From positions 1 to 64,000 of the forward strand of contig JBBIRR010000025.1 in the NCBI GenBank assembly GCA_037441705.1: a stretch of 64,000 nt of DNA, in the 5' to 3' direction. The notes beneath the pieces were generated by a model, which was given only the letters and a program-made list of their open reading frames with translations, did not search any database and was not told the DNA's origin. The DNA comes from Ignavibacteriales bacterium (GTDB lineage Bacteria > Bacteroidota > Ignavibacteria > UBA10030 > UBA6906). Numbering within the stretch: the first letter of the stretch is position 1; every line of letters starts with the position of its first letter. Of the stretch, positions 6 to 32,292 are shown one piece after another. The position numbers and the translations under genes were made by a program.

Positions 6-3000
6 ATGGTTGCGATGACGATAGAGCTGCACCGATACCTCGATGAGATCATCGGTGATGTTGCCTTTGGCGGCGAATTGCCGCGCCTCTGGATTGTCGA
101 CACGACTGCAAAAGCCCACTTTGCCTCCGATCATCCGGCGCTTCCTTCTTCTGGATCGAGGACGCCTCTCCGACCCTGCCAGGCTTGCCACAAGGGGTTG
201 AATGCTTTCGAACGGATTGTTCTGGCACGTGAAGGATCGCTCGAGTTTTTGTTAGAGAGCGGTTCCCACCGCATGGCAACGTTTGCTCCCATTCATCAGG
301 CCAATGCTGCATGGGTTCTGGTAGTCAGCGCCGACATCAAGAAGGTTACAGCACTCACCAGCAAGAGTCTGCGTCAAACAATGATGTTGCTCGGGTTGGT
401 TATTGTAGTGCTCGTCGGGGGATCGACGCTCCTCTACAGGAACAATCTCATTCGAGTGCGGGCAGAAGAAGAAGCCAGGCAGTTACGCGAAAAGCAAGCG
501 CTCAGAGACAAAGTACGCGAGAGCGAAGAACGCTACCGACACCTCGTCGAACTTTCTCCTGATGCTGTTGCCGTCCACTGCGACGGTCGTATTGTTTATG
601 TAAACGCGGCAGCAGTGAAGTTGTTAGGAGCTGAGCACCGTGAAGATCTGCTTGGCAAAGCCGCGGTCGATTTCGTCCATCCGGATTCTCAAGCTCTGGT
701 CAAAGAGCGCATCCGGGCAATGATGACCGACGGGAGAGAGGTGCCGCTCGTGGAGGAACGATTTGTACGGCTGGATGGAAGCGTGATCGAGGTCGAGGTC
801 GCTGCCGCCCCTGTAACCTTCGAGGGGAAGCCGTCGGTGTTGGTTGTGGTGCGGGATACGACTGCTCGCAAACAGGCGGAAGCCCAACTGCAACACAATC
901 TCTCACTGCTGACTGCAACGCTTGCCTCTACAGCGGATGGGATCTTGGTGGTAGATCGTAACGGCAAGATTGTAGGTTTCAATCAGAAGTTTCTTGAGCT
1001 CTGGCGTATTCCGCCGTCGATCATCGAGTCACGGGACGACAACCAGGCGTTGGCATTCGTCCTCGATCAGCTCAAAGAGCCCGAACAGTTTCTGAACAAT
1101 GTTCGAGAATTGTATGCAGCGCCGGAGAAGGAGAGCGTTGACGAGCTAGAGTTCAAAGACGGGCGCATCTTCGAGCGCTATTCACAACCGCAGCGGCTGG
1201 GTGACGAAATCGTCGGGCGGGTGTGGAGTTTCCGTGACGTCACGGAACGACGTTGGGCGGAGCAGGCACTGCGGGTCAGCGAAGCCCGGTTCCGTACAAT
1301 GTTCGAAAAGCACCACGCCGTCATGTTGCTCATCGAACCGACCTCCGGCGCAATCGTTGATGCCAATCCTGCTGCAGCAGCGTTCTACGGCTACACGCGA
1401 AACGAATTACGGATGATGAGGATCAGCGACATCAATCAACTTCCTCCTGAAAAGATTGCTGCCGAGCGTGAGCGTGCTGTACGCGAAGAGAGAAACTGTT
1501 TTGTCTTTCCTCATCGTCTGGCGAGCGGCGAGATACGTATCGTTGAAGTGCATTCGTCACCGGTCGAGTTCTTCGGACAAACACTGCTCTTCTCCATCAT
1601 TCATGACATTACCGAACGGCGGAAGGCTGAACAAGAACTGCAGCGCCAGCTCACCACTATTCAAGCTATCGCTCATCTCACCGGCGTCCTCAACAGCGCT
1701 TCCACGCTCGACGAGGTCTATCGTGCAGCGTTGGATTGCATCGTGCAGAGCATCCATGCAGATCGGGCTTCCATTCTGCTGTATGATCAGCATCAGGTCA
1801 TGCGCTTTGCAGCATGGCACGGCTTGTCGGAAGCCTACCGCAAGGCGGTGGAAGGGCACTCGCCCTGGTCACCCGACGAAAATGATCCAAAGCCTGTTCT
1901 CGTCCACAATATTGCTGATGAGACGAGTCTGAAACATCTGCGCGCTGTGATTGCCGCCGAGGGGATCCAGGCCATGGGCTTCATCCCATTGAAAATTCAC
2001 AGTCGGCTTATCGGCACGTTCATGGTCTATTTCAATACGCCACATGAATGGAGCAAGGAGGAGCAAGCGCTGTGTCTGTCCATCGCAGGACATGTCGCTC
2101 TCGCCATCGAGAGGAAACGACAGGAAGAACGAACGACAAAGACAGAACGGCAACTGCGCCTTGTGTGGGAAACCTCTGCCGAAGGGATGCGGTTGACAGA
2201 CAGCGAAGGAATGATCGTGATGGTGAATGAGGCGTTCTGCCGATTGGTGGGGATGCCCCGGTCTGCCCTCGAGGGAAAATCCCTTGCCGTAATCTACCTG
2301 CCGGAAACTCGTGACCACATCCTCAGGCAGTATCGTGAGCGTTTTCGTACGCAGGCCGTTCAGAAACACTTCGAGACTGAATTGGTGCTCTGGAATGGTA
2401 CGAACGTGTGGATGGAGACAACCAATTCTTTCCTCGAGAATCCCGACGGCTCACCACTGCTCTTATCGATCTTTCGCGACATTACGGAACGAAAGCGGGC
2501 TGACGAGCAGTTGCGCCAGAGCGAGTTGAGCTACCGCGGGTTGTTCAACAGCGTTTCTGATGCCATTTACATCCAAGACCAGGAGGGGCGCTTCCTGGAT
2601 GTGAACGATGGGGCAGTGAAGATGTACGGCTATGAGCGAGAGTATTTCATTGGCAAGACGCCGGAATTTCTCAGCGCTCCTGGAAAGAACGACTTCAACC
2701 ACGTTGGTGTCGCCATACAAAACGCATTCCAGGGCATGCCGCAACGTTTCGAGTTCTGGGGTCTGCGCAAGAACGGCGAGGTCTTCCCCAAAGAAGTACA
2801 CTTGTATCCCGGCAAGTATTTCGGCAAAGATGTCGTCATTGCCCTTGCGCAGGATATCACCGAACGGAAACGGGCAGAGGACGAAAGTGCCGTCAGCTTA
2901 CGATATGAGCGTGCGCTTGCATTGCTACTTCGCATTGGTCTCACGGACAAGCCGCTCGAAGACCTGTTGCCGGCAATGCTGGATCAGATACTTGAAATAC

Positions 3001-4919
3001 CCCTGGCAGGGCTGAACCCGCGCGGAGGTATTTTCCTGTACGATCCCGCATCGAAAGCGCTGGTGATGAAAGCGCATAAGAATCTGAACCCGGCGTCGGT
3101 GCGGCTATGCTCGCGGGTGATGCTGGGCGAGTGTTTGTGCGGCATGGCAGGCGCCACACAGCAAATCCAATTCGCCTCCTGTGTAGATGACCGACATAGC
3201 AGGCGCTACGATGGCATCACCGACCATGGGCATTACACCGTCCCCATCGTCAAGTCGGGGGAATTGCTCGGAGTGCTGCTCCTCTATCTTGATGTGGGAC
3301 ATCAACCAACTGACCGCGAGTGGAGCATACTCGAGGCTGTTGCAGACACGTTAGCGGGCATCATCCATCGTCGTAAGGTCGAACTTCAACACCAGCGCGC
3401 CGAGGAGAAGTATCGCAACATCTTCGAAAACGCAGTGGAAGGAATTTTCCAATCCACTCCCGACGGACGCTTTATCACGGTCAACCCGGCCCTGGCAAGA
3501 ATGTTCGGCTACGAGTCGCCGGAAGAAATGATCGCCTCCACAACGGATATCCAGCGTCAGCTCTACGTCAATTCGCAGCGCCGCCTGGAATTACTGCGCG
3601 AGGTCAAGACACATGGCGTCGTCACCGGCTTTGAGTCGCAGGCCTACCGCCGCGACGGCAGCATCATCTGGCTATCGGAGAACGTGCGAGCCGTGCGGGA
3701 CGAGAACGGCGAGTTGTTGTATCTCGAAGGGACGATCGAGAACATCACCCACCGTAAAGAAGTCGAGCGTCAGCTTCGCCAGGCGCAGAAACTCGACAGC
3801 CTTGGCACGCTTGCCAGCGGCGTAGCACACGACTTCAACAACATTCTTGCAATCATTCTGGGTCACGCAACGGCGATGGAACGCAGTGTACAGAATGCAC
3901 CAGAGCGGATTCCTCACCACGTTGCCGCGATCAGCAAAGCGTCTTTGCGCGGAGCCGCTGTTGTAAAGCAACTCCTGACATTCGCCCGGAAGACGGATGC
4001 GAAGCTCGAGCCGGTTTATCTGAATGCCGTTGTGGCCGAGATAGAAAAGATGGTGCAAGAAACATTTCCGCGCACAATCGTATTCTCTGTGTCGTGTCCG
4101 CCTGCAGTGCCTCCCGTATTGGGCGATGCGACACAGCTCTATCAGGTGCTGCTGAATCTGTGTGTCAATGCGCGCGACGCGATGCCCAGCGGGGGAGAAC
4201 TGTCCCTGGTCATAGCGGTCGTTGCCGGCACCGACGTGCGCCAGCGTTTCCCAAAAGCACAGTCCGATGAGTATGTAAAGCTGACCGTGACCGACACGGG
4301 CACAGGCATGGACGAGGCAACACTCCAGAAAATCTTCGAGCCGTTCTTCACCACCAAAGGTCCAGGCAAGGGTACGGGCTTGGGGTTAGCCGTTGTGTAC
4401 GGGATCATCGAAAACCACAACGGCTTCGTCGATGTGAGCAGCGCTGTGGGGAAAGGAACCACCTTCACCCTGTATCTCCCGGGCATGATCGAGGCAATGA
4501 GACGGACGGAGGGTGATCATCAGCTATCGCAAGAGATCGCCGGCGGAACGGAAACCGTCCTGCTCATCGAAGATGAAGAGATGTTGCGTGAGTTTCTGAA
4601 AGCGATCCTGATTTCGAAAGGGTACACGGTACTTACAGCAAGCGATGGTGAAGAGGGAGTGCGGCAATATCACGAGCATCACGAAACGATCGCTGCGGTG
4701 ATCTCGGACTTAGGCCTTCCGAAACTTGCGGGAGAGGAAGTGTTCAGAAGAATACGCTCCCTCAATCCCAACGTACGAATCATCCTTGTGAGCGGGTATA
4801 TCGACCCGGAAACCAAGGCCTCGCTCGAAGCAGACGGGGCACGACATTTCATTCCCAAACCGTACGCAGTGAACGAGATCCTCCAGACGCTGCGTCATGT
4901 GTTGGATGAGAAGGCGTAG
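6..4919 (+). CDS. Hybrid sensor histidine kinase/response regulator (extracytoplasmic region with CxxCH, TM, 6 PAS, 2 GAF, HisKA, HATPase, REC); probably 5'-truncated by the window edge
   Basis: Repeated PAS ends (RDITERK-like), H-box [11 protein letters not shown]-box [35 protein letters not shown]-terminal REC (LIEDE, ISDLGLP, PKP). The frame is open upstream of position 6. Confidence 0.93.
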
Positions 4920-20242: not shown

Positions 20243-20679
20243 CTCGTACCTCCAACTGTTAAGGGGAAAAATATCAAACAAAAAATACGAACTACAGCAC
20301 AGATGGGCAAGTTAATTGTTCTTAATAGCTGTTGGGCTCGATAGCTGCAAGAATGGGAAGAACGGGAAGCACTCGTTGGCTCTTTGCAGAGGCCATCCGT
20401 CGCCTGCAAATTATGCTCGCTCGTATGGGTCGAGCCACCTTCAACAGCGTGTTCGGACCTCGTTCAGTTCCGAATCTGTTTGCTTCGGCAATCGGGCGGA
20501 CTGTTGGACGTGGTAAGCAGTACTTCGAACAGAAAATGACTGCCGGCGCCATGAAACCACCAACTTGGGTCTCTTGCAAGAGAGTGTGAAAATGTTGCGG
20601 AATGAGTTGCTTTCCAAGCGAGATTGATGTACCTTTGACTCGTCGCCCTTACCTTAGTCCTTACCAACTTTCCCAAGAC

Positions 20680-21117
20680 ATGCCAGGAGCAGCCAAGACA
20701 GCCGACAGGAAGTCGGTTCTTATTGTCGAAGACAGCGCCGATTTTTCCAATCTTCTCAAATACATCATCGAAGATATGGGCTTTGAAGGCGTGCAGTTTC
20801 CTCTGGATAAGGAAGACATTGTTGAATGGTCCAGAACCCACAAGCCGGAGGCTGTGCTGATGGATCTTCAGCTTCGACGGAAGAATGGCATGCAGTACAT
20901 TCAGGAACTCAAGTCGGATTCGTCTACGAAGAACATCCCGATAATCATTATCACCGGCAGAGACCTAACGCAGCGTGAGATTCTCGACCTTCAGATCAAA
21001 GGCGTCAAGTATCTCAGAAAAGGAAGAATTGAGATGGATGAACTGAAGAAGGTCATCGGCGAGACGCTGCGCGGCCAACACAATGGCGGAGAGAAGTCCA
21101 AGAAAGTCAGCCACTGA
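20680..21117 (+). CDS. Single-domain response regulator (REC)
   Basis: VLIVEDS, AVLMDLQL (phospho-Asp), IIIITGR, YLRK; no output domain. Confidence 0.88.
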   Translation: MPGAAKTADRKSVLIVEDSADFSNLLKYIIEDMGFEGVQFPLDKEDIVEWSRTHKPEAVLMDLQLRRKNGMQYIQELKSDSSTKNIPIIIITGRDLTQREILDLQIKGVKYLRKGRIEMDELKKVIGETLRGQHNGGEKSKKVSH

Positions 21118-21149: not shown

Positions 21150-22397
21150 TTACACCCACCCCCTGAGCTTGCAAGCTTCAGCGACGCGAGCGACGGCAAC
21201 TACCATAGCGCCAAGCCTCGGATGCACGTTCTTCTCCTTCACGGCTTCAAGCACCGTGTGGTATGCTTTGGTCAGCGTTCGGTCCAGGCGTTGATGCACC
21301 AAGGCTTCATCCCAGAAGAAGGAGTAGCTATCCTGCACCATTTCAAAATATGAAACCGTGACACCTCCCGCGCTGGCAAGCACATCTGGAATGACGTGGA
21401 CACCTTTTTCGTAGAGGATGAGATCGGCTTCAGGCGTGGTGGGCCCGTTCGCCAATTCGCAAACGATCTTGGCCTTCACAGCATCCGCATTCGTTTCGTT
21501 GATAGCATTTTCCAGAGCGGCGGGATAGAGGATTTCCACATCCAGGCCGAGGACTGCGTCGCGCTCGATTTCGACACCGCCGGGAAATCCGCGGACAGAC
21601 CCGGTCTTGAGTTTGTGCGTCACAAGTTCTTTGGGGTTCAAGCCTTTCTCATTGTAGATTCCGGCGCGGGAATCGCAAACGGCGATCAGTTTTCCGCCAC
21701 CCAGTATCTCCTGATGCAGCAGCGCGGCACGCTGTCCCGCGTTGCCGAATCCCTGAATGGCATACCGTCCGTGTGGGTTCACGCCCAGAAGTTTGCATGC
21801 CTCACGCACGGTAATGACGCCGCCGCGCGCCGTCGCGTCGCGGCGCCCCTCCGTACCTCCGATCTGCATCGGTTTATCGGTAAGCACGCCGGGTTGGTGA
21901 CGCTGTACGATTGTTTCATACTCATCCATCATCCACGCCATCGTCTGGGGGTTCGTGTACACATCTGGTGCAGGAATGTCCTTGTCGATCCCAATATAGG
22001 CCGCTACGGCACGCACGTAGGCGCGTGAGAGGTTCTCCAATTCGCGAGGCGACATGGTCTTCGGATCACACACCACGCCCCCTTTCCCACCGCCCAGCGG
22101 CAAATCAACAACCGCCGTCTTCCACGTCATCCATCCTGCGAGGGCACGAATCGTATCGGCGGTCTCATCGGGATGGAAGCGGATGCCTCCCTTTGCAGGA
22201 CCCCGCGCAAAGTTGTGTTGAATGCGATACCCGTGAAAGATACGTACTTCACCGTTGTCCATCCGCGCCGGCAGGGTGAACTTAAATTCCCGCTGCGGCC
22301 ACAACAACAGCTCCACGGTGGCGCTATCCAGATTGAGGAGACGAGCAGCTTCGCGTACTTGCTGTTGCTCCACTTCGAACGAGTTATAGGACTTCAT
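21150..22397 (-). CDS. gdh: Glu/Leu/Phe/Val dehydrogenase, family-II glutamate dehydrogenase
   Basis: RGPAKGGIRF, MTWK, GGGKGG, DIPAPDV, QGFGNAG, ELANGP, GGVTVSYFE. Confidence 0.9.
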   Translation of the reverse strand: MKSYNSFEVEQQQVREAARLLNLDSATVELLLWPQREFKFTLPARMDNGEVRIFHGYRIQHNFARGPAKGGIRFHPDETADTIRALAGWMTWKTAVVDLPLGGGKGGVVCDPKTMSPRELENLSRAYVRAVAAYIGIDKDIPAPDVYTNPQTMAWMMDEYETIVQRHQPGVLTDKPMQIGGTEGRRDATARGGVITVREACKLLGVNPHGRYAIQGFGNAGQRAALLHQEILGGGKLIAVCDSRAGIYNEKGLNPKELVTHKLKTGSVRGFPGGVEIERDAVLGLDVEILYPAALENAINETNADAVKAKIVCELANGPTTPEADLILYEKGVHVIPDVLASAGGVTVSYFEMVQDSYSFFWDEALVHQRLDRTLTKAYHTVLEAVKEKNVHPRLGAMVVAVARVAEACKLRGWV

Positions 22398-22430
22398 ACT
22401 GGTCTGCCTTTCGCTAACGCCGTGTTGCAA

Positions 22431-22628
22431 TCACTCAGGTTTTTTCTGGTCGGGTTCTTGGGTCGTCGGCCCTTGAAATCGGTCGAGCAAAATGCGATAC
22501 CAGCAGTGCCGACACATGAGGGCGCGATCCACACTCAGGAGGACTTTCTCCCACGGGCTAAGCTCGTGGCCGCAATGCGGGCACGCATCGTAGACGTTCG
22601 GTTTCTGCTGCTGAGATTTCATCACCAT
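22431..22628 (-). CDS. Small Zn-ribbon-like hypothetical protein
   Basis: CPHC...CRHC; packed within a few nt between the dikinase-like gene and gdh. Confidence 0.65.
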   Translation of the reverse strand: MVMKSQQQKPNVYDACPHCGHELSPWEKVLLSVDRALMCRHCWYRILLDRFQGPTTQEPDQKKPE

Positions 22629-22635
22629 GCCTTAT

Positions 22636-25635
22636 CTACTGAGGCCGAAGGATGACTCCTTTGTTACGATGACCGTTGATCTTGATGAGAAGCGGTTTCT
22701 CGAAGCGAATCAGTCGTGTAAAGGCTTTGCGTTCAGCCGGCTCCTGGCGCAAGAGCCAGTCCCAATCCAGATGTCCACGTCGGTCGTGAGCATCCACGGT
22801 GAAATATCCCACCATAAATGCCGTAATGTTCTGAAAGAAATGCGACCCTTGCGAAGGCGTCACGGGCATGTCCTTGAAACTCGTCTCGACGATCGTTTTC
22901 GCGCCGGCAATTTGCTCCCACGTCACCGGAATGCCTAACCACGGATCGAGCGATCCCCAGCGGCCGACGCCGATCAGCAGATAGGGCCGATGCTCGGCAA
23001 GCAGCCGAGCGTTGAAACTGCTCACCTCCGCAGCAACCTCGCGGCTTTTCGCGCGCTCGAATTCATGATAATCAACCAAAACGATATCGCGAATATCCTC
23101 GATGACCCCATTGCCCAGCACCTGATCGCTCTGACAGATGAGCGCCGCGGGATCGAAGTCCTCCACGTTCAACTCTTCCGTTTCGCGATGAACCACAAGC
23201 GGCCGCATCTGCAGCAAGCCGAATTCTTTCAATCGATCGCGCCTCCCCGACATGTTGACGGCAAACTCAATCTCCACCGGCGTTCCCATCCCCCACGTTC
23301 CCATATCGCACAGCAGTTCAAGAATCTGCGGAAGCGGGAACGATCTGTTGCGCAGAAGGGGGGCGAAGGTGACGACGCGGATGCCGCTGCGGGCAAGGCC
23401 GTCCGTGATCGTATCGTTTTCAGGCGAGTAGGTCGAGCCAACGTAGTGCAGCGTGCCGTCCCGTTCGGCAACATCCAGCGTGTATTGCTTCAGCAGAAGG
23501 TCGTGCGTCGCATAGCCGAAGTCCGTGGGCGCATCGAGCTGAAGTGCGTAGAAAAGACGCTGAGAACTGTTGAGCGTCTCTTCCGGTGTGTAGAACTGAA
23601 TCAAGTCCGTCGGATACTTCGGGCAGAAGCGAACAGCATTCCCGCCGTCAACGACCGTTTTGCCGAGACCGAGCGCCACCGACACGATCCCATCCGAGTT
23701 CCTCGCAGGAGGGAGGGGATAGAAATTATACGAGCGCGCAACCCCTGCAAAATCGGGATAGAAGCGATTCTCGTGTGCAAGGCCCACCATCTTTTGCACG
23801 ATCACCGCCATCTTTTCTTCTTCCAATCTGTACGATGTAACTTTGATGTAGTCCTTCGCCGTTTGGTAGAATGTCGAGGCATACACCCGCTTGATGCTGT
23901 TCAGAAGGTCGTTGAGTCTCACCAACGGATTGGGATGATTGTTCGGAAGCATGTACGTTTCATACACGCCGGCGAACGGACTGTACTGTGAGTCTTCCAA
24001 CAAGCTCGACGATCGGACCGCAAGCGGTGCATGCATGATGTCGAGGAAGGCAGCCAGCTCACCCAGGACGTCTTCAGGAAATCGGGAGGCTTCGAGAAAA
24101 CGCCGTGTGATTTCTCGATCGTCCGTACAGTTGATGGCAAACTGCTTGAGGTTGTTCTGCTCGAGAAATTCATCGAACACATCCGTGCCGAGGACGACGG
24201 CCGGCGGAACGGTGATCAGCACGCCCTCGAACTGGTTCGCAACGTTGTAATCGTTGATGAGGGTGTTGACGAAACCCAAGCCTCGTGCCTTTCCCCCGAG
24301 CGAGCCGCTGCCGATGCGCGCGAAGCTGCTTTCTGGATCGAATGTCTCCTTGGAGAAGTCGGTGATGATGCCGCGCTGGCGCGCAATGCCGTAATTATGC
24401 AGCGCATCAATTAGATCCTTTCGCAGAAGATCAACCGAGGGATAGTCGGTTACCTTGCGTGGCCGCAATTGGTGCGCAAGCCAGAATTCGGTTCGTGCTT
24501 TCAACCAGTTCGAAAAATGGTTTCGCTCACCGTGATAGAGTATGCTTTCATCCGGGACGACATGCAGCTGTTCTTCCAGACTCTTCAGGTCGCTCGCCCG
24601 CGCAATCTCCATCCCATCCGGGGTACGAAAGATGAAATCCCCGAAGCTGAAGTATTGCACCATGAATTGCCGAAGTTCCGTCAGAAGAAACGGCGAGTCC
24701 TTCAGGACGAACGACGCTCCTGCGGCGTGTGCAGCGGCCTCGTTGTCCGGCGTTTGCGAAAGGAGCAGGATGGGGAGGTCGGGTTGCTCCGCTTTCACAG
24801 CATTGGCAAAGTGCAGACCCGCCACGGGGTCCTGAACACCGCCGCGGGGGAAATCCACATCCGAGATTATTCCCAGCATGTACTCCTTATACTTCTGATA
24901 ATACTCCCACGCTTCCTCGTATGTCGAGCAAAGCAAAATCTTCGGTCGTGCTCGCATTCTCAGGAATTTATGCGTGAGGTTGATACCTTCCGAAATAAGG
25001 CGCTGGGACTGCTTGAGGATTTCCGTGTAGATGATCGGAAGAAAGGACGAATAGTACTTGACGCTGTCTTCGATAACGATGATGGTCTGTACGCCGACGA
25101 CACGCGTATCGTGCTCGACGTTCATCTGGTCTTCAAGGTATTTCACGATGGCAATGATGATGCGGAAATCGCCTTGCCAGATGAAGACCTTGTCGAACGC
25201 GGACACATCCTGGCGGAGAAGGAGATAGTGTAATTCGCGATTGTCGTGGGCCAGCAGGACTATCGGGATTCCGAGTTGCTCTTCCTTCACGAGGCGTGCA
25301 AAATTGAGGGGATGCATGTCGTCAATGTGCAGCGTCGTGATGATCAGATCGAAGCGGCGTTCCTCCTTTGCGAGACTGATTGCATCCCGACCGCTGGAGA
25401 CGCGTGTCAATTCCGGCGAGTGACTGAGATTGAAGCCCTGATACTCGTTCCGAATCAGTTCGTACAGGCGGCCGTCTTCTTCGAACAGGTGGAGATCGTA
25501 CAGACTCGATACCAGAAGAATGTCTCGGATGCGGCGTCGCATGAGGTTCTGAAAGCCCTGAAAGCGATTGCCGTACCCATGCTCTACCCACAACGGGTCG
25601 AGTGTCGTCATCCGTGCATCGAGTTTGGGTTTCAT
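22636..25635 (-). CDS. Receiver-domain/PPDK_N (PEP-synthase-like ATP-grasp) fusion protein, paralogue 2
   Basis: Two REC-like domains, then GSLGGKARGL, LAVRSSSLLEDS..FAGVYET, MAVIVQKMV, LGLGKTVVDG, VEIEFA, LQMRP; C-terminal SQGSHFFQN; no pyruvate TIM barrel. Confidence 0.85.
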   Translation of the reverse strand: MKPKLDARMTTLDPLWVEHGYGNRFQGFQNLMRRRIRDILLVSSLYDLHLFEEDGRLYELIRNEYQGFNLSHSPELTRVSSGRDAISLAKEERRFDLIITTLHIDDMHPLNFARLVKEEQLGIPIVLLAHDNRELHYLLLRQDVSAFDKVFIWQGDFRIIIAIVKYLEDQMNVEHDTRVVGVQTIIVIEDSVKYYSSFLPIIYTEILKQSQRLISEGINLTHKFLRMRARPKILLCSTYEEAWEYYQKYKEYMLGIISDVDFPRGGVQDPVAGLHFANAVKAEQPDLPILLLSQTPDNEAAAHAAGASFVLKDSPFLLTELRQFMVQYFSFGDFIFRTPDGMEIARASDLKSLEEQLHVVPDESILYHGERNHFSNWLKARTEFWLAHQLRPRKVTDYPSVDLLRKDLIDALHNYGIARQRGIITDFSKETFDPESSFARIGSGSLGGKARGLGFVNTLINDYNVANQFEGVLITVPPAVVLGTDVFDEFLEQNNLKQFAINCTDDREITRRFLEASRFPEDVLGELAAFLDIMHAPLAVRSSSLLEDSQYSPFAGVYETYMLPNNHPNPLVRLNDLLNSIKRVYASTFYQTAKDYIKVTSYRLEEEKMAVIVQKMVGLAHENRFYPDFAGVARSYNFYPLPPARNSDGIVSVALGLGKTVVDGGNAVRFCPKYPTDLIQFYTPEETLNSSQRLFYALQLDAPTDFGYATHDLLLKQYTLDVAERDGTLHYVGSTYSPENDTITDGLARSGIRVVTFAPLLRNRSFPLPQILELLCDMGTWGMGTPVEIEFAVNMSGRRDRLKEFGLLQMRPLVVHRETEELNVEDFDPAALICQSDQVLGNGVIEDIRDIVLVDYHEFERAKSREVAAEVSSFNARLLAEHRPYLLIGVGRWGSLDPWLGIPVTWEQIAGAKTIVETSFKDMPVTPSQGSHFFQNITAFMVGYFTVDAHDRRGHLDWDWLLRQEPAERKAFTRLIRFEKPLLIKINGHRNKGVILRPQ

Positions 25636-25658
25636 TTCTGATCACCGAAGGAGTTGCT

Positions 25659-25815
25659 TGGAGGCTGATCAAAAAGTAGTGCTACGTCATTCTGAGCCTC
25701 GTTTCCCAGAGGCGAAGAATCCAGAACCGAGCCATTTGCTGGATTCTTCACCCCGCTTCCCCGAGCGAAGCCGAAGGGTTCAGAATGACGCTGGTTTCTT
25801 TTCGTTCAGCCTCCA
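25659..25815. mobile_element. Putative MITE/REP-like palindromic element
   Basis: Outer IR TGGAGGCTGA/TCAGCCTCCA, extending imperfectly to ..AAAA; inner IRs CGTCATTCTGA/TCAGAATGACG and GAAGAATCCAG/CTGGATTCTTC; non-coding. Confidence 0.65.
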
Positions 25816-25827
25816 GAAGCATCCCAC

Positions 25828-27201
<1,374 letters not shown>

Positions 27202-27251
27202 TTATGTATGGTAGTGGTCGTTGTTGGTAGTTACGACCGGCATGCAGCCGG

Positions 27252-30233
27252 TCACTTTCCGGGTTTGAGAATAATCCCCTTGTTCTTCCGTCCGTTGATC
27301 TTCACCGTGATAGGTTCGTTGAATCGGAGGTGCGCCGTGTATTGCAATTGCTCCACAGGTTCCTGCGAAAGCAGCCAATCCCAATCAATGAACCCGAGAT
27401 TGACAAAGGAGTTGACGGTGAAATACCCGACACGGAACGATGTGATGTTTTGGAAGAAGTGAGAGCCTTGCGAGGGCGTCACGTTCAAATCTTTGAATCC
27501 CGATTCCACGATCGCCGCCGCGCCGGCAATCTGATCCCAGGTGACCGGAATGCCCAACCAGTGATCGAGGCTTCCCCACCGGCCGACGCCGATGAGAATG
27601 TACGGCCGCTGTTCTGCCATCAGCTTCGAGTTGAGGGTGCTGACTTCCCGCGCAGCGTCGCGGCTTTTGCCGCGGTCGAATTTGTGGATGTCGACAACGA
27701 CGATGTCGTAGATATTCGTTACCACGCCGTTGCCCAACACCTGCGTGCTGTGGCAGATCAAGTCTTCCTGACTCACTTTTTCGACATCGAGTTCTTCCAA
27801 CTCGTAGCTTAAGACGAGAGGCCGTATCTGCAAGAACGCAAACTCCTTCAAGCGATCCGGCGGCACCGAAAGGTTCACCGCAAATTCAATCTCGACAGGC
27901 GTGCCCATGCCCCATGTGCCCATATCGAGAACCAATTCAAGAATCTCCGGCAGGGGAAAGGTACGATGCTTGAGGATGGGGGCAAACGTAACGACGCGCC
28001 TGCCACTGCGCGAAACGCCATCGTGTACGGTGTCGTCATCCGGCGAGTACGTGGAGCCAACATGATACAACGTTTGGTCTTCTTCCGCTTTGGTCAGATC
28101 GTAGAGCTGCACAAACTCTGCGGGGTCCATTGTCCCATCGCTGTTGAGGCCGCTCTCCAGGTCGAGCGCATAGAAACTCTGCTGCGCGTTCTTCAGCGTC
28201 TCCTTCGTCGAGAAGAATTGAAGGAGATGTCGTGGAAACTTCGGGCAGAAGCGCACCGTATTGCCGCCGTCCACAACCGTCTTACCGAGGCCGAGCGCAA
28301 CATCTACAATGCCGTCGTTCGAGGATTGCGGCGGAACGGGATAGAAGTTGTAGGACTTGCCGACCCCGGCGAAGTCCGGGTAAAACCTGCCGTCATGCTT
28401 CGCCCCAACCATCCGCTGAATGATGACGGCCATCTTTTCCTCTTCCAAGCGATACGCGGTCGCTTTCATGTAATCGCGCGCTTTGCGTGCGAAGGTCGAC
28501 GCATACACGCACTTGATGGTCGTGAGCAGTTGCTGCAAACGGACCGCTGCATCGGAGTGGTCGTTCGGAATCATGTACGTTTGATAGACGCCCGCGAACG
28601 GCTGATATTGAGAGTCCTCTAACAAACTCGAAGATCGTACTGCCAGCGGTTCGTGTGTAATGTCGAGAAACTCCGACAGCTTCGTCACAATGTCGGCAGG
28701 GAAGTGCTGTGCCTCCTTGAAGCGACGGTACAATTCTTCATCCGGGGGCGGATCGAGCAACACATGTTCGAGATGGTTCATTTCGAGGAACTTATCGAAC
28801 ACGTCTGTTGCAACCACGACGGCCGAGGGGACATAGATTTCGATTCCTTCGAATCTGTGCCTGATGTCGTAGCTGTTGAGTAATGTATTGATGAAACCGA
28901 GGCCGCGAGCCTTGCCGCCGAGAGAACCGCTGCCGATGCGTGCAAAACTGTTTTGTGGATCGAACGACTCCTTGCTGAATTCGGTGATGACGCCGCGCTG
29001 TCGAATTTCACGATACATCCGCAGCGAGTTGATCAGCTCGTTGCGCAGGTCGGTAACCGATGGAAACTCCTCCACCGTGCGGGGGCGCAGCCGCTGCGCC
29101 AGCCAGAACTCCGTGCGCGCCTTGAGCCAATTGGAGAAGTGATTCCGCTTGGCATGATAGACGATGCTCTCATCCGGGACGACGCGCAGCTGCTCTTCCA
29201 ACGTCTTCAGGTTATGGGCGCGCCCCACTTCACGTCCGTCGGGCGTGCGGAACACGAAATCGCCGAAGCCGAAGTTGGACAGGATAAAGGCACGGAGCTC
29301 GTGCAGCAGGCGCGGCGATGTCTTGAGGAGGAATGATGCTCCGATGCTGCGCGCCTGATCGGCGAAGGCGGGATTGCTGGACTGCAGCAGGATGGGGATA
29401 TCCTCGTGTGCTGCACGCACCTGCTTGGCGAAATCGAATCCGGCCTCAGGGTCTTTCACGCCGTTCCGTTTGAAATTGATATCCGAAATAATGCCGAGAA
29501 TAAACTCTTCATACTTCTCGTAGTACGCCCAGGCTTCCTCGTATGACGTGCAAAGCAGAATCTTCGGCCGCGCCCGCATCCGCAACAACCGGTGGGTGAG
29601 ATTGACACCCTCGGCGATGAGCTGCTGCGAGTGATGAAGCACTTCGGTGTAGAGGATGGGAAGATAGGACGAGTAGAAGCGCACATCATCCTCGACCAGC
29701 AAGATTGACTGGACACCGACAGTGAGTGTGTCGTTCTCGACGTTGCGCCGATCCTCCACGTCCTTGATGATCGCAATAATCAGCCGATAGTCCCCCTGCC
29801 AGATGAAGATGCGGTCGAACACCGACGTGTCGTACATCGTCACCAACTCTTTCCGCTCGCGGTTATCGTAGGCAAGCAACACGATTGGGGTGGTGATGCC
29901 CGCTTCCCGCAGCTTCTGCACAAACTTGATGACGTGCATGTCCTCGATGTGCAGGGTGGTGATGATCAGGTCGAACGGGTTGGGACCGGAAGCAAGGTCG
30001 ATTGCCTCTGCTGCACTGGTGACATGGGTGATTTCCGGAGCGTGGCTCAAGTTCAGCGCTTGCGCCTCGTGCCGGATCAGCTCATATAATCGTCCGTCCT
30101 CCTCGAACAAGTAATTGTCGTACATGCTGGACACGAGGAGGATATCCCGGACCTTGAAGCGCATCAGCTTCTGGAACGTCTTGATGCGGCTGCCGGAGAT
30201 GTCTTCTATGTTCAGATGATCGATCTTACTCAT
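27252..30233 (-). CDS. Receiver-domain/PPDK_N (PEP-synthase-like ATP-grasp) fusion protein, paralogue 1
   Basis: Same architecture and motifs as 22636-25635 (GSLGGKARGL, LAVRSSSLLEDS, MAVIIQRMV, VEIEFA, LQIRP, SQGSHFFQN). Confidence 0.85.
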   Translation of the reverse strand: MSKIDHLNIEDISGSRIKTFQKLMRFKVRDILLVSSMYDNYLFEEDGRLYELIRHEAQALNLSHAPEITHVTSAAEAIDLASGPNPFDLIITTLHIEDMHVIKFVQKLREAGITTPIVLLAYDNRERKELVTMYDTSVFDRIFIWQGDYRLIIAIIKDVEDRRNVENDTLTVGVQSILLVEDDVRFYSSYLPILYTEVLHHSQQLIAEGVNLTHRLLRMRARPKILLCTSYEEAWAYYEKYEEFILGIISDINFKRNGVKDPEAGFDFAKQVRAAHEDIPILLQSSNPAFADQARSIGASFLLKTSPRLLHELRAFILSNFGFGDFVFRTPDGREVGRAHNLKTLEEQLRVVPDESIVYHAKRNHFSNWLKARTEFWLAQRLRPRTVEEFPSVTDLRNELINSLRMYREIRQRGVITEFSKESFDPQNSFARIGSGSLGGKARGLGFINTLLNSYDIRHRFEGIEIYVPSAVVVATDVFDKFLEMNHLEHVLLDPPPDEELYRRFKEAQHFPADIVTKLSEFLDITHEPLAVRSSSLLEDSQYQPFAGVYQTYMIPNDHSDAAVRLQQLLTTIKCVYASTFARKARDYMKATAYRLEEEKMAVIIQRMVGAKHDGRFYPDFAGVGKSYNFYPVPPQSSNDGIVDVALGLGKTVVDGGNTVRFCPKFPRHLLQFFSTKETLKNAQQSFYALDLESGLNSDGTMDPAEFVQLYDLTKAEEDQTLYHVGSTYSPDDDTVHDGVSRSGRRVVTFAPILKHRTFPLPEILELVLDMGTWGMGTPVEIEFAVNLSVPPDRLKEFAFLQIRPLVLSYELEELDVEKVSQEDLICHSTQVLGNGVVTNIYDIVVVDIHKFDRGKSRDAAREVSTLNSKLMAEQRPYILIGVGRWGSLDHWLGIPVTWDQIAGAAAIVESGFKDLNVTPSQGSHFFQNITSFRVGYFTVNSFVNLGFIDWDWLLSQEPVEQLQYTAHLRFNEPITVKINGRKNKGIILKPGK

Positions 30234-30481: not shown

Positions 30482-30883
30482 TCAGCTGATAAATGCCCGG
30501 ATCTGCTCGTTGCGCAAGACGCGCTCGCCGGTATCAACCAGGAAGGCGTCGAGAAATGCACCGAAGCTTTTCTTGTCGTACGTTCCGAGAAAAAGCCCAT
30601 CCATCCGGATGTGAGGGTCGTCGGACGGGCCTGCAACGTATGTGGTAAGATGTGCTGATGAGTTCAGCATGTTGAGCGCCTCCAGAAATCCCGCTCGATC
30701 CGTCTTCACCGTGTCGTTCACGCGGAAATACTGCTGCAGCAACACGCCTCCCAAGTATGCCTTGACAAATACACTGCCGTGCATAGCGTGACGCGCAAGG
30801 ACAGAGTTTTCGGTTTCCCGCGGCACGATCTCGAAGCCGAAGAATTCCAGATGGTTTACAACGTTCTGCAGTGCTGTGTCCAT
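30482..30883 (-). CDS. Hypothetical protein, possibly YbjN/T3SS-chaperone-like fold
   Basis: GGAGG RBS before MDTALQNVV; about 133 aa with an alpha/beta pattern including LEALNMLN. The fold call is tentative. Confidence 0.6.
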   Translation of the reverse strand: MDTALQNVVNHLEFFGFEIVPRETENSVLARHAMHGSVFVKAYLGGVLLQQYFRVNDTVKTDRAGFLEALNMLNSSAHLTTYVAGPSDDPHIRMDGLFLGTYDKKSFGAFLDAFLVDTGERVLRNEQIRAFIS

Positions 30884-30951
30884 GGTATCCCTCCTGTTTG
30901 ATAGTGGCGTTTCGTCACTGCTGATCCGGCCCACGCATTTCCAATCGCCTT

Positions 30952-32292
30952 TTACACTAACCCTTGATCCATCATGGCGTTGGCCACCTTGAGAAAGCCT
31001 GCAATGTTGGCACCGACAAGATAGTTGCCGGGCGCGCCGTACTTCTCGGCAGTCTCAAGACACGTCTGGTGGATGTTCTTCATAATCTGGTGGAGCCGCG
31101 TGTCAACTTCTTCCTTGGGCCAGGGCAGACGCATGCTGTTCTGCGCCATCTCCAGGCCTGAGGTGGCAACGCCGCCTGCGTTGGAGGCTTTGCCGGGCGA
31201 GAAGAGAATCTTCGCATCATGGAAAATCTTGATCGCTCCGAGCGTGCTGGGCATGTTCGCCCCTTCGCAAACACATACGCACCCGTTCTTCACCAACTCG
31301 CGGGCATCGTTCTCGTCCAATTCGTTCTGCGTCGCACACGGCATGGCGACATCCACGGGCACACTCCACGGTCGTTTCCCTTCGAAGAAGGGAACCTTGA
31401 ACTTCTCGGCGTAGGGTTTGACTGCATCCTGCGCGCTCGCGCGCATCGTCAGCATGTAGTCGATCTTCTCGCCCGAGACGCCATCTTCATCGAGAACAAA
31501 CCCATCGGGTCCCGAAAGCGTCACCACCTTGCCGCCCAGTTGCGTCACCTTCAGCGCGGCTCCCCACGCTACGTTGCCGAATCCCGAGAGCGCGACGCGC
31601 TTACCTTCGATACTCATCCCGCGCGTCTTCAGCATCTCCTCGGCGAAGTACACCACTCCGTAACCCGTGGCTTCGGGACGAATGAGCGAACCGCCCCAGT
31701 TCAAGCCCTTGCCCGTCAGAACGCCGTTGAACTCGCGCGTCAATCGTTTCCACTGCCCGAACAGGAATCCGATTTCCCTTCCGCCGACGCCGATGTCGCC
31801 TGCAGGGACATCAACATCGGGACCAATATGGCGGAACAGTTCGGTCATGAAGCTCTGGCAAAAGCGCATCACTTCGCTGTCGCTCTTTCCCTTCGGATCG
31901 AAGTCGGAACCCCCTTTGCCGCCTCCCATCGGAAGGGACGTGAGGCTGTTCTTGAAGACTTGCTCGAACGCGAGAAACTTCAAGATGCCCAGCGTAACGG
32001 AAGGGTGGAAGCGCAATCCACCTTTGTACGGACCGATCGCGCTGTTCATTTGAATGCGATAACCCCGGTTGATGTGGTAGTTTCCCTGATCGTCCTGCCA
32101 TGGCACGCGGAAGATCACGACGCGTTCGGGCTCCACCATCCGCTCCAGGATTTTCGCCGACCGATACTCGGGGTGGCGTTCTAACACAAGTTCTAATGAT
32201 TCCGTAACCTCCTGAACTGCCTGGTGGAACTCAGGCTCTGCAGGGTTTTTTGCTTTGACCTGGGCAATCAGGTTCTTGACATATTCAGACAT
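30952..32292 (-). CDS. gdhA: Glutamate dehydrogenase, family I (Clostridium symbiosum/Bacteroides-like coenzyme loop)
   Basis: [43 protein letters not shown]. Confidence 0.95.
   Translation of the reverse strand: MSEYVKNLIAQVKAKNPAEPEFHQAVQEVTESLELVLERHPEYRSAKILERMVEPERVVIFRVPWQDDQGNYHINRGYRIQMNSAIGPYKGGLRFHPSVTLGILKFLAFEQVFKNSLTSLPMGGGKGGSDFDPKGKSDSEVMRFCQSFMTELFRHIGPDVDVPAGDIGVGGREIGFLFGQWKRLTREFNGVLTGKGLNWGGSLIRPEATGYGVVYFAEEMLKTRGMSIEGKRVALSGFGNVAWGAALKVTQLGGKVVTLSGPDGFVLDEDGVSGEKIDYMLTMRASAQDAVKPYAEKFKVPFFEGKRPWSVPVDVAMPCATQNELDENDARELVKNGCVCVCEGANMPSTLGAIKIFHDAKILFSPGKASNAGGVATSGLEMAQNSMRLPWPKEEVDTRLHQIMKNIHQTCLETAEKYGAPGNYLVGANIAGFLKVANAMMDQGLV

Follow-up and report, generated by a model that had tools for sequence, protein, structure and literature searches.

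Two paralogous genes in a 64,000-nucleotide stretch of an Ignavibacteriales genome (assembly GCA_037441705.1, contig JBBIRR010000025.1, positions 1 to 64,000; hereafter the window) belong to a family that is best described as a variant of the dikinase kind, in which a receiver-gated ATP-grasp domain and a cryptic His-carrier-like domain are partnered with the glutamate dehydrogenase (GDH) GdhA. We give about an even chance to the proposal that these proteins are receiver-gated, His-autophosphorylating kinases of the dikinase type that act in trans on GdhA. Domain anatomy, residue conservation, fold similarity, and both linkage to and co-occurrence with GdhA were observed and are laid out below.

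Both genes lie in a block of co-directional genes on the minus strand that reads, in the order of transcription, GDH-A, paralogue 2, GDH-B, paralogue 1, a zinc-ribbon open reading frame (ORF), and GDH-C. Paralogue 1 (22636..25635, from the ORF and its Pfam matches) encodes 999 residues and gave an AlphaFold2 (AF2) model with a mean pLDDT of 87.7 and a pTM of 0.80, and paralogue 2 (27252..30233) encodes 993 residues; the two are identical in 622 of 991 alignment columns (63%), with one gap. The gene 5′ of paralogue 2, GDH-A (30952..32292), encodes a GdhA-type enzyme of 446 residues (ELFV_dehydrog, E value of 1e-88; ELFV_dehydrog_N, 3e-51), and the gene 5′ of paralogue 1, GDH-B (25828..27189), encodes another of 453 residues (ELFV_dehydrog, 3e-87). 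GDH-C (21150..22430), at the end of the block, encodes a second type of GDH of about 415 to 426 residues (ELFV_dehydrog, 1e-67).

From the N to the C terminus, both paralogues consist of a pseudo-receiver, a true receiver, a DUF5752-like linker, a complete PPDK_N ATP-grasp domain, and a tail of ∼170 residues. Both ORFs, and all of the pyruvate phosphate dikinase (PPDK) and phosphoenolpyruvate (PEP) synthase motifs that an earlier note on this DNA had quoted, are present in the translations. In paralogue 1 the ATP-grasp domain (residues 445 to 826; 23158..24303, minus strand) matches PF01326 with an E value of 8e-38 over model positions 3 to 322 of 328 and carries all of the nucleotide and Mg motifs: GGKA (447 to 450), AVRSSSLLEDSQYSPFAG (539 to 556), MAVIVQ (609 to 614), GLGKTVVDG (656 to 664), IEFA (789 to 792), and LQMRP (808 to 812). 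The domain of paralogue 2 (residues 437 to 817; 27783-28925, minus strand) also covers nearly the whole Pfam model (E value of 8e-37). Conservation was read from an alignment of 47 diverse full-length representatives that are 35 to 63% identical to paralogue 1. Lys449, Arg541, Ser542, Ser543, Gly556, Met609, Glu790, and Gln809 are invariant in all 47, while Glu547, Asp548, Glu788, and Arg811 are kept in 45 or 46.

When the whole AF2 model of paralogue 1 was compared with the PDB by Foldseek, the best match for the ATP-grasp part was rifampin phosphotransferase (RPH; 5hv3, E value of 1e-12), and HpeI, PEP synthase, and PPDK were also among the best. Sequence searches of the PDB and NCBIfam gave RPH and PRK06241-type enzymes as the best ATP-grasp matches. 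The NCBIfam models concerned (PigC, RedH, PEPS, and RPH) were matched at E values of 1e-10 to 1e-18, with scores that in every case fall far short of the cut-offs, which range from 883 to 1,350 bits; the best scores were 61.7 bits against a cut-off of 883 and 65.8 bits against a cut-off of 1,300. No Pfam match to the PEP-utilizers_C barrel was obtained at an E value of ≤0.1 with either whole paralogue, and only ∼170 residues separate the ATP-grasp domain from the end of the protein. The earlier note had put this tail at about 150 residues, which is too short, and it was right that the tail leaves no room for the PEP/pyruvate TIM barrel.

The tail is a C-terminal domain with a GxGRWGS loop and a G[ST]HFF motif (22639..23148 in paralogue 1 and 27258-27770 in paralogue 2, both on the minus strand), and its own model has a pLDDT of 94.9. 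Its fold begins at about residue 832, PPDK_N ends at 826, and the linker amounts to about 15 residues. The tail is encoded only twice in the 3.83-Mb assembly, by paralogues 1 and 2, and these two copies are 64% identical. The His of the motif is His932 in paralogue 1 (codon at 22840..22842) and His925 in paralogue 2 (codon at 27459..27461, by translation and alignment), both on the minus strand and both placed correctly in the earlier note. The 13 residues around it, TPSQGSHFFQNIT, are the same in both paralogues, an identity that says little by itself because the proteins are 63% identical anyway. Conservation of the His across homologues, on which the earlier note had wanted its proposal judged, proved to be complete: His932 is kept in all 47 full-length representatives, and the His is likewise kept in all 45 rows of a second alignment, in which the two window tails are joined by 43 shorter proteins, most of them fragments, that a search of representative sequences had returned. 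Gly889, Arg892, Trp893, Gly894, Gly901, Pro903, Glu917, Ser928, Phe933, and Phe934 are also invariant in the 47, and Asp897 is present in 46. The motif has the form SQG[ST]HFFQN, as against GG.TSHAA in the canonical mobile domain. The same genome encodes a canonical PPDK (open frame of 945 residues; longest ORF with a start codon, 929) and an Enzyme I (open frame of 611 residues; ORF of 591) elsewhere, and these carry GGMTSHAA and GGLTSHAA motifs.

We compared the tail model with 48,161 PDB chains by structural alignment (VIA), independently of Foldseek. Carrier (phosphohistidine) domains took ranks 1, 2, 4, 5, 6, 7, and 15 with Z scores of 5.1 to 7.0. The isolated phosphoryl carrier domain of PPDK came first (2fm4; Z score of 7.0, root mean square deviation of 3.6, 115 of 128 residues aligned), ahead of the carrier-like C-terminal domain of Bacillus stearothermophilus pyruvate kinase (2e28, rank 2; 6.8), residues 383 to 512 of maize PPDK (1vbg, rank 4; 6.7), residues 756 to 867 of RPH (5hv1, rank 5; 6.5), Enzyme I (2wqd, rank 6; 5.8), the N-terminal domain of Enzyme I (5woy, rank 7; 5.7), and Enzyme I-Ntr (5t12, rank 15; 5.1). 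Rank 3 went to a DRTGG domain, which is not a carrier (2ioj; 6.8). Realignment of the top 1,000 Foldseek chains to the tail placed carrier domains of PPDK, RPH, or Enzyme I-Ntr at all of ranks 1 to 7. In the tail model the His (His113 in its numbering) is the second residue of a helix spanning residues 112 to 120; it is preceded by a strand ending in IVE(T) and a loop, and beyond the helix come a Gly and a hydrophobic strand (G-x-x-hydrophobic). A His at the start of a helix between two such strands is also the arrangement in PPDK, Enzyme I, and RPH, where this His is the catalytic one. Going by the predicted model, the tail probably has the swivel fold and is most like the carrier domains.

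A number of results weigh against equating the tail with a carrier domain. At the sequence level, PF00391 (PEP-utilizers) was not matched by the whole paralogues at an E value of ≤0.1, the tail alone (last 180 residues) matched no Pfam family at an E value of ≤1, and a profile search of PDB sequences returned a single unrelated match (E value of 1.5). Alignment of the tail by hhalign with the mobile domains of PPDK and Enzyme I from the window genome and 20 relatives, a set of low diversity (Neff of 2.6), gave a probability of 0.45% over 9 columns, those of the I-x-I-[DN]-G strand at the end. A pairwise global alignment, which carries no statistics, likewise gave no link to the carrier domain. 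At the structural level, Foldseek with the tail found nothing in the PDB at an E value of ≤0.001; RraA, LD-carboxypeptidase, chaperonin apical, and PA domains made up its weak rows, and in the SCOP classification all of these come under the swivelling β/β/α fold. The Z scores of 5.1 to 7.0 fall in the range that VIA reports as the common best for models without a true match, and other swivelling β/β/α domains (DRTGG, aconitase X, chaperonin apical, PA, and RraA) reach 5 to 6.8. The comparison with carriers is one of whole folds and not of single residues such as His932. The tail is also set apart by ∼60 extra residues and by a GxGRWGS...D..LGIPV loop that is unique to it. The swivel fold anticipated in the earlier note was thus recovered in the predicted model, with carriers as its best matches, at middling Z scores and with no homology at the profile level, and the Foldseek comparison that it had suggested brought out the carriers only when the top 1,000 chains were realigned. 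The tail could be a carrier domain that has diverged very far, or one that arose by convergence.

The N-terminal half resembles a tandem receiver module, and Foldseek with the whole model of paralogue 1 matched the tandem receivers of PleD at an E value of 1e-7. On whole proteins, Response_reg scored 36.4 bits for paralogue 1, where both receivers are taken together, and 31.3 bits for paralogue 2, against a cut-off of 30.2. Scanned singly, the two receivers of paralogue 1 fall below that cut-off. Receiver 1 (residues ∼30 to 175; 25111..25548, minus strand; 22.5 bits for residues 1 to 175) is a pseudo-receiver with DLIITT in place of a phospho-acceptor Asp; in the 47 sequences, positions 100 and 101 hold Thr, Ile, Ser, Val, or Ala followed by Met, Thr, or Phe, and Asp is absent from the five commonest residues. 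Receiver 2 (residues ∼180 to 330; 24646..25098, minus strand; 21.5 bits for residues 178 to 335) has Glu189 (45 of 47), Asp190 (37 of 47), Asp259 (41 of 47), Ser293 (41 of 47, with Thr in three more), and Lys312 (42 of 47, with Arg in three more), which by our own reading make up a receiver active site of acidic pocket, acceptor Asp, Ser/Thr, and Lys. The codon of the putative acceptor Asp259, in the motif GIISDVDFPRGG, is at 24859..24861 on the minus strand. The linker (residues ∼335 to 430; 24346..24633, minus strand) reaches 25.1 bits with the DUF5752 model PF19027 (cut-off, 23) in a scan restricted to residues 330 to 440; the match spans model positions 18 to 102 of 208 only, and the whole-protein scores (17.1 and 20.6 bits) are below the cut-off. 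Neither paralogue has a Pfam match to HisKA, HisKA_3, or HATPase_c at an E value of ≤0.1.

The link to GDH was examined by scanning one genome per species, which yielded at least 628 matching stretches; the neighbourhood counts refer to the best 79 loci, which come from Ignavibacteria, Acidobacteriota, Eisenbacteria, Calditrichia, Zixibacteria, Bdellovibrionota, Planctomycetota, Actinomycetota, Gemmatimonadota, and other groups. When distances to GDH were counted by tblastn for the 75 full-length family genes in these loci (14 partial family genes were excluded), 47 had a GDH gene within 600 bp on either side. It lay upstream in 43 (41 on the same strand) and downstream in 11 (9 on the same strand and of the GDH-C type), some genes being flanked on both sides, and a further 10 had a GDH gene elsewhere within 8 kb. 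After clustering of 853 neighbouring ORFs, GDH was the sole widely recurring neighbour, present in 53 of the 79 loci, and no other cluster exceeded 9. The next clusters were a NarL-type regulator (9 loci), a GltD-like oxidoreductase and its iron-sulfur (FeS) partner (6 loci each), and a PAS-HisKA_3 kinase (5 loci); peptidases and transporters recurred in a few related loci only.

The family genes and the GDH genes are also paired by type. Among 32 GDH/family-gene pairs that could be scored with the ORF caller, six of the seven family genes with a GDH-A type upstream were closer to paralogue 2, and 22 of the 25 with a GDH-B type upstream were closer to paralogue 1 (two ties and one reversal). 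This type-specific pairing suggests that the GDH gene and the dikinase gene were duplicated as a unit and stayed paired. Such stable pairing fits specificity between the two proteins, yet it could be plain inheritance of synteny. GdhA-type enzymes encoded beside a family gene are 73 to 89% identical to GDH-B across phyla, and those of genomes from the same phylum that lack the family are 53 to 69% identical. To judge by these identities, the linked GDHs may form a distinct subgroup that is unusually conserved or has spread horizontally.

Co-occurrence was assessed in 201 genomes sampled evenly from the phylum of the window, with a GdhA-type GDH scored as a best E value of ≤1e-150. The tail domain was found in 41 genomes and gave a strong match in 35, every one of which has a GdhA-type GDH. 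Within the window's own class, all 31 genomes with a strong match have it, and none of the 18 others do (12 without a match and 6 with the divergent subfamily only); in the rest of the phylum it is present in 4 of 4 genomes with the family and in 31 of 148 without. In the six genomes with the divergent subfamily only, the best GDH is 33 to 37% identical, and in the three whose coordinates were examined it adjoins the family gene. In this sample a strong family match was never seen without GdhA and GdhA was often seen without the family, as would be expected if the family were an accessory or a regulator.

Other observations from the same data argue the opposite way. No GDH gene was found within the 8-kb flanks of 18 of the 75 family genes, and the 31 sampled genomes with a GdhA-type GDH and no family member indicate that GdhA does not depend on the family. 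The co-occurrence counts carry no statistic, and related genomes are not independent samples. Gene linkage does not tell whether the target is a protein or a metabolite of the GDH reaction. A complex prediction for the core of paralogue 1 (residues 438 to 999) with residues 17 to 453 of GDH-B, run with separate alignments and no controls, gave ipSAE values of 0.02 and 0.04, below the mark of 0.32, a result that counts neither in favour of binding nor against it.

Some of the neighbours touch on signalling or on glutamate itself. The GltD-like genes (Fer4_20 plus Pyr_redox_2), often with a DHODB-type FeS/FAD partner, lie a few genes away from the family gene in six loci, mainly of Acidobacteriota, and form a further tie to glutamate metabolism. 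In four Ignavibacteria-like loci a PAS-HisKA_3-HATPase kinase and a NarL-type regulator sit between the family gene and the next GDH gene; the window lacks them. The zinc-ribbon ORF lies directly 3′ of the family gene in 13 of the 79 loci by tblastn, mostly where a GDH-C-type gene follows.

Among characterized proteins, RPH-Lm (5HV1, 5HV3, and 5FBS) and the PRK06241-type enzymes (PigC and RedH) are built like the paralogues in that the ATP-grasp domain comes first, the His domain lies at the extreme C terminus, and there is no PEP/pyruvate barrel. RPH, whose His domain is the one matched by the tail at rank 5, has a large rifampin-binding domain in between, whereas the window paralogues have only a short linker. 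They further differ from RPH in the two receivers and the DUF5752-like domain placed in front, in a tail that fails PF00391, in having GDH rather than an antibiotic context as the genomic partner, and in NCBIfam scores of at most 66 bits against cut-offs of 883 to 1,350. PPDK and PEP synthase share with the paralogues a PPDK_N domain with all of its motifs, and no structure matched the tail better than the PPDK carrier did, but both enzymes have the PEP-utilizers_C barrel and PF00391, neither of which the paralogues match. The arrangement of tandem receivers before an enzyme module, one lacking and one bearing the Asp, is that of PleD, where the output is GGDEF rather than an ATP-grasp and His module. 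In PleD the phosphorylated receiver comes first, while in the paralogues the Asp-less one does.

The nearest precedent for a barrel-less dikinase that would work in a similar way is VadK (Rv1127c) of Mycobacterium tuberculosis, likened here by its description and not by sequence. According to the 2026 report, VadK has an ATP-binding and a phospho-transfer His domain with no barrel, autophosphorylates on His422 in a Mg-ATP-dependent manner, pulls down methylcitrate synthase and dehydratase, and is proposed to tune the methylcitrate cycle by binding its enzymes (PMC13400623). By the same account it is a truncated PPDK of ∼50 kDa with a canonical His domain and no receivers, and its partners are methylcitrate enzymes, not GDH. 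Combinations of receivers with PPDK domains appear in two censuses that assign them no function: one lists the REC-PPDK combination, with Heimdallarchaeota REC-PPDK proteins in its supplement (PMC5847659), and the other reports that Asp-less receivers are enriched with PPDK outputs (PMC4395418). Beyond these two mentions, our literature search found no functional study of the family or of a link between GDH and a dikinase.

From this we infer every chemical step of the mechanism that follows, as well as what the acceptor is and in which direction GDH would be affected. The PPDK_N ATP-grasp domain would bind Mg-ATP and phosphorylate the invariant His932 (His925 in paralogue 2) at the N terminus of a helix in the swivel-type tail. 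By analogy with PPDK, PEP synthase, and RPH, the β-phosphate would be used and AMP released. With no acceptor barrel in its own chain, the His-phosphorylated protein would act in trans, and genome context points to the GdhA-type GDH of the neighbouring gene as the target. The action on GDH could be a phosphotransfer, or a phosphorylation-dependent binding like that proposed for VadK and its metabolic partners. A separate histidine kinase would phosphorylate receiver 2 at Asp259 and so gate the activity, with receiver 1 serving as an Asp-less adaptor as in PleD. An acceptor in trans, specifically a GDH, had been one of the suggestions of the earlier note, and it fits both the conserved GDH neighbourhood and the co-occurrence with GdhA.

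A stronger claim, which we regard as possible and somewhat doubtful, is that the family is a dedicated, signal-gated posttranslational switch for GdhA-type GDH that phosphorylates the enzyme or clamps it in a phospho-dependent manner in many bacterial phyla and some Asgard archaea. By analogy, such a switch would be to ammonia assimilation by way of GDH what GlnE is to glutamine synthetase. A study of 1996 reportedly found that one or more trans-acting genes downstream of gdhA affect GDH activity in Bacteroides thetaiotaomicron; as a lead, these might be candidate members of the dikinase family. Reversible in vivo inactivation of the GDH of Bacteroides fragilis is said to have been reported in the 1980s.

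A small-molecule acceptor is a serious rival to GDH as the target, since all characterized close relatives of the ATP-grasp domain (PigC, RedH, PEPS, and RPH by NCBIfam; RPH and HpeI by Foldseek) are small-molecule enzymes, and yet we think it unlikely. The phospho-His would then phosphorylate a metabolite, as in RPH, PigC/RedH, and HpeHI, held by the GxGRWGS/Glu917/Ser928 surface of the tail or by the DUF5752-like domain. Candidate compounds lie at the glutamate/2-oxoglutarate/ammonia node, and GDH would make the compound, use it, or be regulated by it. The binding site could be formed by the extra tail invariants (Gly889, Arg892, Trp893, Gly894, Gly901, Pro903, Glu917, and Ser928, along with Asp897), which to our knowledge are not features of canonical carrier domains, and the GltD-like oxidoreductase pairs near the gene in six loci would also suit a metabolite. 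What speaks for a protein target instead is that no substrate-binding domain is found between the ATP-grasp and His domains, unlike in RPH, the linker being about 15 residues long; that specificity between proteins accounts more readily for the co-duplication and stable pairing of regulator and GDH types than a common metabolite would; and that a GdhA-type GDH accompanies the family in 35 of 35 strong-match genomes.

The tail might not be a phospho-carrier at all, a reading that we find quite improbable. The His would then be structural or take part in other chemistry (of an ATP-grasp ligase or an adenylyl type), or the protein would be an ATP-sensing scaffold that binds GDH noncovalently. The lack of sequence homology to known carriers and the spread of the swivelling β/β/α fold over many noncarrier domains at similar Z scores agree with this reading, as does the 1,654-residue double-core relative P0153, which ends in an NTP_transf_2 nucleotidyltransferase domain. 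Some nucleotidyltransferases modify proteins of nitrogen regulation, and the end of P0153 recalls them. Against it stand the G-[ST]-H at the N terminus of a helix, in the strand layout known from the carriers of PPDK, Enzyme I, and RPH, the retention of all ATP and Mg residues of a dikinase ATP-grasp, and the position of the tail, which was only ever found fused after PPDK_N (23 of 23 checked). The earlier note had offered, next to a GDH, the protein's own receiver Asp as the acceptor, in which case phospho-His932 would pass its phosphate to Asp259 and the protein would be a self-contained, ATP-to-AMP hybrid histidine kinase with the receiver as its output. One chain does hold both the invariant His domain and a receiver whose acidic pocket, Ser/Thr, and Lys are complete, and the AF2 model is compact (pTM of 0.80). 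We nevertheless consider this relay very unlikely, because receiver-less forms keep both the His and the link to GDH, because the Asp is lost where the His is not, and because a receiver is an odd terminal output. Core-only members (∼550 to 625 residues, without a receiver) retain the tail His, and in two acidobacterial loci such a core, of 592 residues, directly follows a GDH-C-type gene; the double-core proteins (1,500 to 1,650 residues) have no receiver match; Asp259 is replaced in 6 of the 47 full-length members and the His in none; and with the receiver as the last step the system would be left without an output domain. The PAS kinase and the NarL-type regulator found in some cassettes (5 and 9 loci) could supply the receiver with its kinase, as the proposal of a receiver-gated kinase acting in trans on GdhA would have it.

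The family is very large. A search with the tail against 90%-identity clusters passed 7,801 of 8,000 scored candidates at an E value of ≤0.001, and the same threshold in a library of 50%-identity representatives gave 1,505 proteins. The 23 proteins checked for the position of the tail, all with PPDK_N immediately in front of it, were variant forms with lengths other than ∼1,000 residues; they comprise core-only proteins (PPDK_N plus tail), proteins in which the core is preceded only by the DUF5752-like part, and the double-core proteins. A 29%-identical subfamily keeps GGK, VRSSSLLED, IEFA, LQxR, GPGRWGS, and G-T-H-F-F. A recurrent trio was also seen: a ∼1,000-residue receiver form, nearby or elsewhere, a ∼590-residue core-only form, and then a ∼1,065- to 1,110-residue divergent form (29% identical), adjoining a GDH-C-type gene, as in locus L035 (9425-14387, minus strand) and in at least three other genomes. 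Databases label family members as "PEP synthase," "CheY-like," or "histidine kinase," and the ESM Atlas gives only cluster names of the type "PEP synthase family." On sequence grounds, the family is best described as very large and uncharacterized, built around an old module that is always of two parts, PPDK_N and the tail.

Carbon and nitrogen metabolism meet at GDH, and its control in bacteria is generally seen as a matter of transcription and allostery. Here, a very large family is tied genomically to GdhA across many phyla, and we found no experimental study of it. If its members are indeed receiver-gated phosphohistidine enzymes that act on GDH, they would bring a new level to the control of nitrogen metabolism, provide a second independent case, VadK being the first, in which dikinase modules were turned into kinases that regulate metabolic enzymes, and represent a new, sequence-cryptic branch of phosphohistidine carrier domains missed by current annotation.

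The remaining features of the window lie around this block. The zinc-ribbon ORF (22431..22628, minus strand, 65 residues), between paralogue 1 and GDH-C, has two CxxC pairs (CPHCG...CRHCWY) and only weak Zn-ribbon matches in Pfam. Its stop codon abuts the called TTG start of GDH-C, so the true start of GDH-C may be a later ATG (MKSYNS...). The 720-bp gap between GDH-A and paralogue 2 contains a 150-residue ORF (30482-30934, minus strand) without a Pfam match, which is a putative gene. A histidine kinase within the cassette of the window was sought and rejected; the sole one among the scanned window ORFs, ∼17 kb away, is a 1,637-residue hybrid kinase (6-4919, plus strand) with many PAS and GAF domains, HisKA, HATPase_c, and a C-terminal receiver. 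Just past GDH-C, on the opposite strand, a stand-alone receiver of 171 residues (20602-21117, plus strand; Response_reg, E value of 1e-15) is a possible candidate for a partner in the same signalling path.

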